Origin: a virus | Length of the DNA stretch: 64,000 nt | Strand: one strand, 5' to 3' | Virus record (IMG/VR): IMGVR_UViG_3300001765_000030 | Coordinates: 64,001-128,000 of that record | Shown here: positions 62,877 to 64,000 of the stretch, piece by piece | How positions within the stretch are numbered: position 1 is the first letter of the stretch | Layout: each line of letters starts with the position of its first letter | Translations under genes and position numbers: made by a program | The notes under the pieces: model-generated | Database searches by the model: none | Told to the model about the DNA's origin: nothing | What the model saw: the letters and a program-made list of their open reading frames with translations, nothing else

Positions 62877-62913
62877 ATATTTCTCCAATTGTTGTTTTAT
62901 TGTTATACTATCT

Positions 62914-62930
62914 CATAATTAAATATATAG
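62914..62930 (-). promoter_or_regulatory. Putative early promoter
   Basis: CATAATTAAATATATAG on plus strand. Confidence 0.65.
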
Positions 62931-62960
62931 TTCAAAACGAAGTTCAAAAATGTAAAAAGA

Positions 62961-62976
62961 TGAGGACGAATCCTCA
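62961..62976 (-). terminator. Intrinsic terminator
   Basis: TGAGGA-cgaa-TCCTCA with A-tract on left. Confidence 0.7.
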
Positions 62977-62982
62977 CCATAT

Positions 62983-63525
62983 TTATTGGAATTTTGTATT
63001 CAAATATGATATAATGAAATCATATTCTTCTTTATCCATCTTCAATCCCCACTTATATTTGACAGTTACCCAATCAATTATATAGGAATCTTTGTTTATT
63101 TTAGGCATCCATTTAGATGGATCTTTGGCACCCTTAGACCTATTCGAAGCGATTGACACAGCATGTAAATGTTTTGTATCGCTAATATTATTGAAGAAAT
63201 TAATCTTTTTATTCTTATCCCAAAGATACCCGCCAGACATATTCGCTTCAGATACTGGAACAAAATGGTCAATGTCTATAAGACTTGCACCTCTAATAGT
63301 ATCTCCACTGTAGATATCTATCCACATTCCTTTAACAATCTTTCCATTGACATATGTAGTACTTTCCGAAGATGCAATATTATCTCGAATCAAAACTTCT
63401 TGTCTTGTATTCTGACCATCTTTATCGGAATCTATCCAAGTTCCCCATGAAGATCTATCATACGTTGGCATCGTTTGACACAGTATACTTGAGAGTAATA
63501 CTAAGATTGATAAAATAACTTTCAT
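62983..63525 (-). CDS. Secreted DUF1524/HNH-family nuclease
   Basis: Start moved to ATG 63525 behind AAGGAG; signal peptide MKVILSILVLLSSILC; W.D.D.DG.NTRQEVL.RD, DIDHFVP, LHAVS..SNRSKG.KDP..WMP. Confidence 0.9.
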   Translation of the reverse strand: MKVILSILVLLSSILCQTMPTYDRSSWGTWIDSDKDGQNTRQEVLIRDNIASSESTTYVNGKIVKGMWIDIYSGDTIRGASLIDIDHFVPVSEANMSGGYLWDKNKKINFFNNISDTKHLHAVSIASNRSKGAKDPSKWMPKINKDSYIIDWVTVKYKWGLKMDKEEYDFIISYLNTKFQ

Positions 63526-63540
63526 AAATATCTCCTTGTT

Positions 63541-63890
63541 AAAAAAATAAGGAGGGTGAATAACCGCCCTCCTATCTCTCGCACCGTTCGACCGTACGAT
63601 GTTGCGAAAACCATCTTGGTACGGTAAGTGATGGTCCACTAAAAATGTCCGTCACCATAGGACTCATCTATGGATTTGGGTTGAGTAATTATTATTTACG
63701 AATACTCAGACTAGACTCAACACATCTGATCGCACCCTGTCTAGGCGGGTTATAATGACCAACTTTATCCATTCACACGACTGGAATCGTAGAAGCTAGT
63801 TGGAACTCTACAGCAACATCAAATGTATCTAGACATACAATTGATTGATAAATGATTATTAATCAGCGAAAAAACTAATCATTTATCAAT
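63541..63890 (-). ncRNA. Candidate structured non-coding RNA (about 350 nt)
   Basis: No credible long ORF; GC above background; nine helices incl. two crossing pairs; flanked by promoter motifs and an intrinsic terminator. Confidence 0.55.
63550..63573 (-). terminator. Intrinsic terminator
   Basis: AGGAGGG...CCCTCCT with A-tract on left. Confidence 0.8.
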
Positions 63891-63930
63891 ACATTGTTTA
63901 AGCAGATATACATATAAATATACATCTACT

Positions 63931-63947
63931 CATAATTAAATATATAA
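63931..63947 (-). promoter_or_regulatory. Putative early promoter
   Basis: CATAATTAAATATATAA on plus strand. Confidence 0.65.
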
Positions 63948-63978
63948 CCATAAATTCGATTTAAATAATAAAAAAAAT

Positions 63979-63990
63979 AGCCCGAAGGCT
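63979..63990 (-). terminator. Probable terminator of a gene beyond the window
   Basis: AGCC-cgaa-GGCT with A-tract on left. Confidence 0.55.
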
Positions 63991-64000
63991 CTTATTTTAA

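Follow-up and report, generated by a model that had tools for sequence, protein, structure and literature searches.

What is the role of a long stretch of phage DNA that encodes no protein, is headed by promoter motifs and ends in a terminator just before a gene? The stretch in question belongs to a single 181,190-bp virus record (35% G+C) that was assembled from a microbial-mat metagenome and whose completeness is ~69% (CheckV). The window is the 64,000-nt piece of this record from base 64001 to base 128000; positions given here are window positions unless they are marked as genome positions. A preliminary description of the window had proposed that the stretch gives rise either to an unassigned large structured RNA or to a riboswitch-like attenuator of the adjacent nuclease gene. 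Our tentative interpretation is that it is a leader RNA of the 5′UTR premature-termination type, ~347–390 nt long, with leaky read-through into the nuclease gene. That the stretch is transcribed, where its transcripts begin and that some of them pass the terminator are inferred from the DNA features described below, as is any role of the terminated RNA.

The phage and its largest gene-free stretch

Few of the phage's proteins have matches in PHROGs or Pfam. Among its genes are two RNA polymerase (RNAP) beta-like genes of the Rpb2_6 type (genome 178983–180239, minus strand, and genome 5091–5882, plus strand, the latter with one in-frame TGA within the match), which is the pattern of jumbo phages with two multisubunit RNAPs. 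Two classes of promoter-like motifs recur in the genome. The early-type class, represented by TATATATTTAATTATGAG, has 14 genome copies at up to three mismatches and resembles the early consensus of phage AR9, AAATATATATTAT-(6N)-G. The late-type class, AACA-N6-TG, has 132 genome sites, 35 of which lie in non-ORF DNA; such DNA makes up 6.3% of the genome, so that the motif is enriched ~4-fold there, and its local consensus in this genome is AAACATnnTAATGTA. According to the AR9 report, the early consensus and a late consensus of the form AACA-(6N)-TA/G, whose last base is the transcription start site (TSS), were mapped experimentally (PMC5312081). The 14 early-type copies, the 35 intergenic late-type copies and the two RNAP beta-like genes place the genome in the AR9-type promoter class. 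Because both promoter classes match the AR9 consensus, the record probably represents a jumbo phage of the AR9/phiKZ type that encodes its own RNAPs for early and late transcription.

On the minus strand, the stretch precedes a gene for a 180-aa nuclease of the GmrSD_C/DUF1524-type HNH family (62983–63525; weak HNH_4 match, E 0.0023), the N-terminus of which looks signal-peptide-like by eye. Sequence reading and a Shine–Dalgarno scan place AAGGAG at 63532–63537 (minus strand), 6 nt before the ATG at 63525; a longer GTG ORF that reaches 63639 was rejected as an artefact. The gene is followed on the same strand by a terminator recovered in the terminator scan (62959–62978) and by the next early-type promoter copy (62912–62929; genome 126929). 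In the other direction, no credible ORF occurs from 63526 to the next credible start, which lies past the window edge. What had been described as the largest gene-free stretch of the window is in fact the largest ORF-free gap of the whole record. TAA, TAG and TGA are all present in each of its six frames, and a stop-recoded gene was rejected because every frame is closed by all three kinds of stop. The non-coding core (63576–63842, minus strand, 267 nt) has 42.3% G+C compared with a genome mean of 35.0%, which bears out the earlier observation that it is richer in G+C than its flanks; among genome windows of equal size it ranks in the top 4.6%. The adjoining interval from 63843 to 63946 is very A+T-rich (19% G+C).

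Homologues of the nuclease (n = 26, 37–54% identity) mostly carry PF07510, and the DNA upstream of some of them can be compared with the present locus. In three contigs with homologues of 48–54% identity, the gene upstream either adjoins the nuclease start or overlaps it, and there is no long leader; a fourth contig has a 230-nt upstream gap. Because nuclease homologues on other contigs occur without such a leader, the leader is not a conserved regulator of the nuclease family. A 10.5-kb contig carries neighbouring genes for NADAR (PF08719) and Acb5 (PF26761) and, ~2.7 kb downstream of them on the same strand, a homologue with 49% identity (locus coordinates 1416–2345); it is therefore possible that nucleases of this family move together with anti-defence genes.

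Promoter motifs, terminal hairpin and terminator

The two promoter motifs noted earlier at the far end of the stretch belong to the recurrent classes, and both point into the stretch on the minus strand. The early-type motif (TATATATTTAATTATGA, 63931–63947) is an exact copy of the recurrent 18-mer and its commonest variant; the other 13 copies of this class lie ~11–73 nt upstream of a same-strand ribosome-binding site (RBS) and start codon. The late-type motif (63887–63898) is a member of the class that is enriched in non-ORF DNA and is somewhat off-consensus, with TATTGA in place of the TAATGT preferred in this genome. Most of the 35 non-ORF sites of the late class lie 11–43 nt before a start, and nearly all copies of the two classes (14 early-type, 35 intergenic late-type) are oriented toward a nearby start. 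Elsewhere in the genome, both motif classes are mostly found 11–80 nt from a gene start, whereas here they are followed by ~360–405 nt of non-coding DNA. An early transcript is expected from the sequence to begin near 63930, and a late transcript would begin at 63887, the final G of the motif, if the AR9 rule applies.

Directly upstream of the stretch, and already beyond the window, lies a 21-codon ORF (MIKELFEAMMREIKSLAINLK; genome 128003–128068, minus strand) that is preceded by a GGTGG RBS and by a variant of the early-type motif. Together with a UUCG-loop hairpin and U-tract downstream of it (63971–63993, minus strand; identified by sequence reading rather than by a tool score), this ORF forms a tiny complete unit. 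The hairpin is predicted to close the unit and to insulate the early promoter of the stretch from upstream transcription.

A perfect 15-bp A+T-rich hairpin with a 17-nt loop and five possible additional outer pairs occupies 63844–63890 (minus strand), and its arms were confirmed. It has a folding energy of −18.8 kcal/mol (z −5.3), and none of 200 shuffles was as stable. The hairpin would be internal to the early transcript and 5′-terminal, with 12 bp, in the late transcript. The genome has a few other A+T-rich perfect repeats of at least 13 bp. The 10-mer GATTGATAAA occurs in one hairpin arm and, inverted, in the other (63843–63852 and 63882–63890), and occurs again at 63505–63514, within codons 4–7 of the nuclease gene; the nuclease mRNA could therefore pair with the 5′ arm of the leader over 9 bp. 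The 9-mer of that pairing is common (22 genome copies compared with ~10 expected), and the pairing may be due to chance.

An intrinsic terminator (T1, 63541–63573), with the stem GGAGGG(C)GG / CC(A)CCCUCC followed by UUAUUUUUUU, closes the stretch at its nuclease-proximal end, as had been proposed, and acts on the minus strand only. T1 has a folding energy of −17.1 kcal/mol (z −4.6), is intact in the full-length minimum free energy (MFE) fold and was recovered by the genome-wide terminator scan (T-run at genome 127549). Its U-tract is separated from the nuclease Shine–Dalgarno sequence by 3 nt, and there is no room for a promoter between them. The nuclease gene lacks a promoter of its own and can be reached only by transcription through T1.

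The position of T1 has parallels across the genome. Among the 24 terminators that the genome-wide scan placed ahead of a gene, about 8 are just 18–26 nt from its start, which makes terminator read-through look routine in this phage. Two of the 24, T1 and a terminator before a GyrA-like gene, are alone in lacking an ORF of at least 45 aa in the 205 nt upstream. What sets the T1 locus apart is that no coding sequence fills the interval in front of the terminator.

The unit before the GyrA-like gene (genome 177754–177931, minus strand, outside the window) has an AACA-N6-TG motif, which is followed by ~145 nt with three clean hairpins and 41% G+C. Positions 177790–177930 fold at z −4.5, the terminator has a folding energy of −20.6 kcal/mol, and the RBS and ATG of the 798-aa GyrA/ParC-like gene (PF00521, E 1e-81) come 33 nt after the start of the T-run. 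This unit has the same layout as the nuclease leader with far better predicted structure, and it is the better candidate for a non-coding RNA (ncRNA). A third long leader (genome 62570–62850, minus strand, outside the window) is gene-free over ~265 nt with 41% G+C, follows a variant early-type motif (TCTATATTAAGTGATGAT) and contains a 13-bp perfect hairpin; its 5′ half folds at z −3.5, and there is no terminator before the 102-aa ORF that follows. No motif shared among the three long leaders of the genome was found.

Folding of the core and the search for relatives

Folding of the full 360 nt gives z ~−3.8 on both strands, and this value derives entirely from the 15-bp 5′ hairpin and the terminator. 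The 267-nt core has no excess stability relative to shuffles (z −0.99 on the minus strand, +0.04 on the plus strand), and its sub-windows of 100–150 nt range from z +0.57 to z −0.79. Two further gene-free regions of this genome served as controls and do fold significantly (z −4.5 and z −3.5). There is no apparent need for a complex fold in the core. A comparison of folding energies with those of dinucleotide shuffles had been suggested in the preliminary description, together with the statement that an energy no better than the shuffles would speak against a structured RNA, and this is the result obtained for the core. All nine helices listed there are perfect complements, and the 15-bp hairpin is exceptional in its stability; the internal helices are at chance level, and perfect helices do not outnumber those of dinucleotide shuffles at any of four minimum lengths (5 bp, p 0.24; 6 bp, p 0.09; 7 bp, p 0.11; 8 bp, p 0.38). 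Two pseudoknots had been drawn from these chance-level helices; they have no independent support. Of the notion of a large structured RNA, an unassigned non-coding minus-strand unit that has genuine promoter motifs and a terminator of its own is well supported in its architecture, and the high structure is not supported.

Known RNA families provide no assignment for the stretch, in agreement with the earlier failure to recognize a signature by eye. At the gathering threshold, Rfam searches of the window and of the remaining genome yielded zero matches (including riboswitches, T-box, ribozymes, tmRNA, RNase P, group I/II introns, GOLLD, ROOL and HEARO), and ARAGORN found neither tRNA nor tmRNA in the whole record. 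Searches for relatives were likewise negative: blastn against a phage collection gave nothing in the region, exact-pattern scans of viral, metagenome and genome contigs returned 17 chance 18-mer matches only, and no close relative of the phage emerged when the nuclease, the GyrA-like protein and a neighbour of 991 aa were used as protein anchors. No homologue of the stretch was found in the phage, viral, metagenome and genome collections, and no paralogue of the core was found elsewhere in the genome. A divergent 155-aa neighbour has a sole homologue with 45% identity, on a contig that has a different gene at the corresponding place and a 135-nt spacer.

Public sequencing runs contain the stretch unchanged in mat samples; no RNA runs occur among the listed runs that hold it. 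A 151-nt contig from a wastewater library, which is labelled RNA-Seq but rated as probably DNA, matches 63597–63748 at depth 3 and differs from it by three substitutions and two deletions of 1 nt each. We regard this contig as a strain variant and count it neither for expression nor for conservation. Its deletions, which lie at 63645 and 63647, would, if real, remove the ATG of a 36-codon plus-strand ORF and shift a 31-codon minus-strand ORF. In the full-length fold, three of its four position-listed changes fall at mostly unpaired bases and one at a paired base, a sample too small to use. Mat sample X2 also contains 151-nt contigs that are only ~81–84% identical to the gene for the 155-aa protein, and a more distant relative of the phage therefore coexists in that sample; none of these divergent contigs was seen over the non-coding stretch.

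Competing readings and known systems

The following scheme would account for the arrangement as a leaky leader. The early and late promoters would both fire into the stretch on the minus strand, from near 63930 and near 63887, and with two promoter types the RNA would be made throughout infection. Most transcripts would stop at 63573–63541, giving RNAs of ~390 and 347 nt with the very stable 15-bp hairpin at or near their 5′ end, while a minority would read through T1 into the nuclease gene. The unit would thus be a long 5′ leader whose leaky premature terminator keeps the secreted DNase low, with the terminated RNA as its main product. Several observations count against this reading, namely the lack of a thermodynamic signal in the core on either strand, the lack of a homologue, the off-consensus late motif, the occurrence of nuclease homologues without such a leader and a length beyond that of the RNAs catalogued in the Pseudomonas jumbo phages (<250 nt). 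We favour it tentatively over the alternatives that follow.

A somewhat unlikely alternative is that the stretch is transcribed filler, either an eroded lost gene or acquired DNA caught between a promoter and a terminator, whose RNA has no role. A core that folds like its shuffles, with helix counts at chance, is what filler would show, as are the lack of a homologue in the collections searched and the occurrence of related nucleases without the element; the layout of promoter, intervening sequence and terminator is also that of ordinary genes of this genome. The sequence nevertheless bears no sign of a dead gene or pseudogene. Six-frame read-through translations matched nothing in Pfam or PHROGs better than E 0.03, a tblastn search with the proteins encoded beside nuclease homologues gave no match to the region, and no similarity to any gene of the phage itself was found. 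Base composition also argues against neutral filler, because the G+C content of the core is far above that of the other long gaps (26–32%). At 42% it even exceeds the coding mean of 35% rather than drifting to the A+T-rich intergenic level, the reverse of what decay would be expected to produce where the genome is A+T-rich. The unit before the GyrA-like gene, which shares the layout, also speaks against filler.

An unlikely reading is that the unit specifies a stand-alone phage RNA of ~350–390 nt that acts in trans, as an mRNA regulator or a protein sponge, and that its adjacency to the nuclease is incidental. The unit is complete in the sense expected of such a gene, with predicted upstream insulation at 63971–63993, two promoters, a stabilizing 5′ hairpin and a strong terminator; its raised G+C content is like that of structured RNAs in A+T-rich genomes, and intergenic and 5′UTR-derived small RNAs (sRNAs) are known in phiKZ-like phages (PMC10914365, PMC11512511). 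Against this, the core has no structure signal and no target can be named; the sole complementarity noticed, the 9 nt between a hairpin arm and nuclease codons 4–7, involves a common 9-mer.

A conditional attenuator, of which the preliminary description had proposed a riboswitch-like form, fares worse and is improbable; here a ligand, a protein or the state of a phage RNAP would switch T1 off, in the manner of a riboswitch or of processive antitermination, and so time the nuclease. Its appeal is that T1 lies directly before the Shine–Dalgarno sequence of a potentially harmful secreted DNase, behind a long leader for which alternative pairings had been reported. The pairing proposed between 63745–63752 and the terminator region 63561–63567 proved to be imperfect, and the best duplex of the core with the 5′ arm of the terminator (−12.6 kcal/mol) is weaker than the shuffle mean (−13.2 kcal/mol), with 62% of shuffles as good or better; T1 itself is undisturbed in the MFE fold. 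Even at E up to 10, an Rfam search of 63300–64000 detected neither a riboswitch nor any other family and gave noise only (best E 0.4 or worse), no conserved motif is common to this and the two other long leaders, and the related nucleases have no such leader. Promoterless genes spaced closely behind a terminator are common in the genome, and plain leakiness therefore suffices.

A broader proposal is that the ~350–390-nt RNA and the 145-nt unit before the GyrA-like gene represent a new class of jumbo-phage regulatory RNA that acts on the non-canonical multisubunit RNAPs, for example by setting terminator read-through in cis, or that acts in trans, and is not a passive leader; we regard this as a long shot. 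A DNA-level element (replication origin, packaging site or operator cluster) is very improbable, because the perfect 15-bp inverted repeat in very A+T-rich DNA and the third copy of its half-site at 63505–63514 are offset by the half-site being a common 9-mer, by the lack of iterons or tandem repeats in the stretch and of a turn in cumulative GC skew there, and by a G+C-rich core that would be left unexplained.

The leaky-leader reading has counterparts in known phages. In phage lambda, the pR′–tR′ region produces 6S RNA, a short terminated RNA made from a constitutive promoter directly upstream of genes that need read-through, by means of the host RNAP and the Q protein loaded at the qut site. 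The present unit resembles lambda 6S as a terminated RNA that would lie directly upstream of a read-through-dependent gene, and differs in the polymerase, which in lambda is that of the host, and in having no recognized counterpart of Q and qut.

The closest parallels are in the Pseudomonas phages phiKZ and 201phi2-1, in which ONT-cappable-seq revealed many terminators inside 5′UTRs that yield abundant short RNAs (PMC10914365, PMC11512511). More than 90% of transcripts abort at the phiKZ terminator T102; there are 29 candidate 5′UTR-derived ncRNAs across the phages of PMC10914365, and 8 of 11 sRNAs of 201phi2-1 are of the premature-termination type (PMC11512511). Published examples include T102 upstream of PHIKZ221 and TU237 upstream of PHIKZ302 in phiKZ, and sRNA005 in 201phi2-1 (PMC10914365, PMC11512511). 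These units and the present one have the same order of phage promoter, non-coding stretch, intrinsic terminator and gene start, in phages with their own multisubunit RNAPs. The locus has two features of the class: a promoter with no coding sequence between it and the terminator (with the start site placed by the AR9 rule), and a terminator inside the 5′UTR, upstream of the nuclease start. The published RNAs are 71–141 nt long and the RNA predicted here would be 347–390 nt; it exceeds the <250 nt filter of the published catalogues, which is an operational cut-off and not a biological definition. They were also seen as transcripts, one of them conserved across genera, whereas the present unit is a prediction with no detectable relatives, and unlike the published examples it has two stacked promoters.

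A further parallel is Bacillus phage AR9, which has the same early and late consensus types. The available text of the AR9 report states that genes with both promoter types are continuously expressed, that 5′UTRs span 26–491 nt, a range that includes the length of the present leader, and that the AR9 RNAPs terminate strongly at predicted terminators (PMC5312081). In that text, no terminators are described inside the long leaders of AR9, and the present leader has no sequence similarity to AR9. The kind of leader RNA proposed here is already known from phiKZ-like phages, and no long-standing question is opened by it; if true, it would explain how the phage holds a secreted DNase at a low level. 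If transcribed as predicted, the unit would rank among the longest non-coding units from promoter to terminator that have been proposed for any jumbo phage encoding its own RNAPs, and it would extend the premature-termination leader RNAs of Pseudomonas phiKZ-like phages to an AR9-type phage from a microbial mat.
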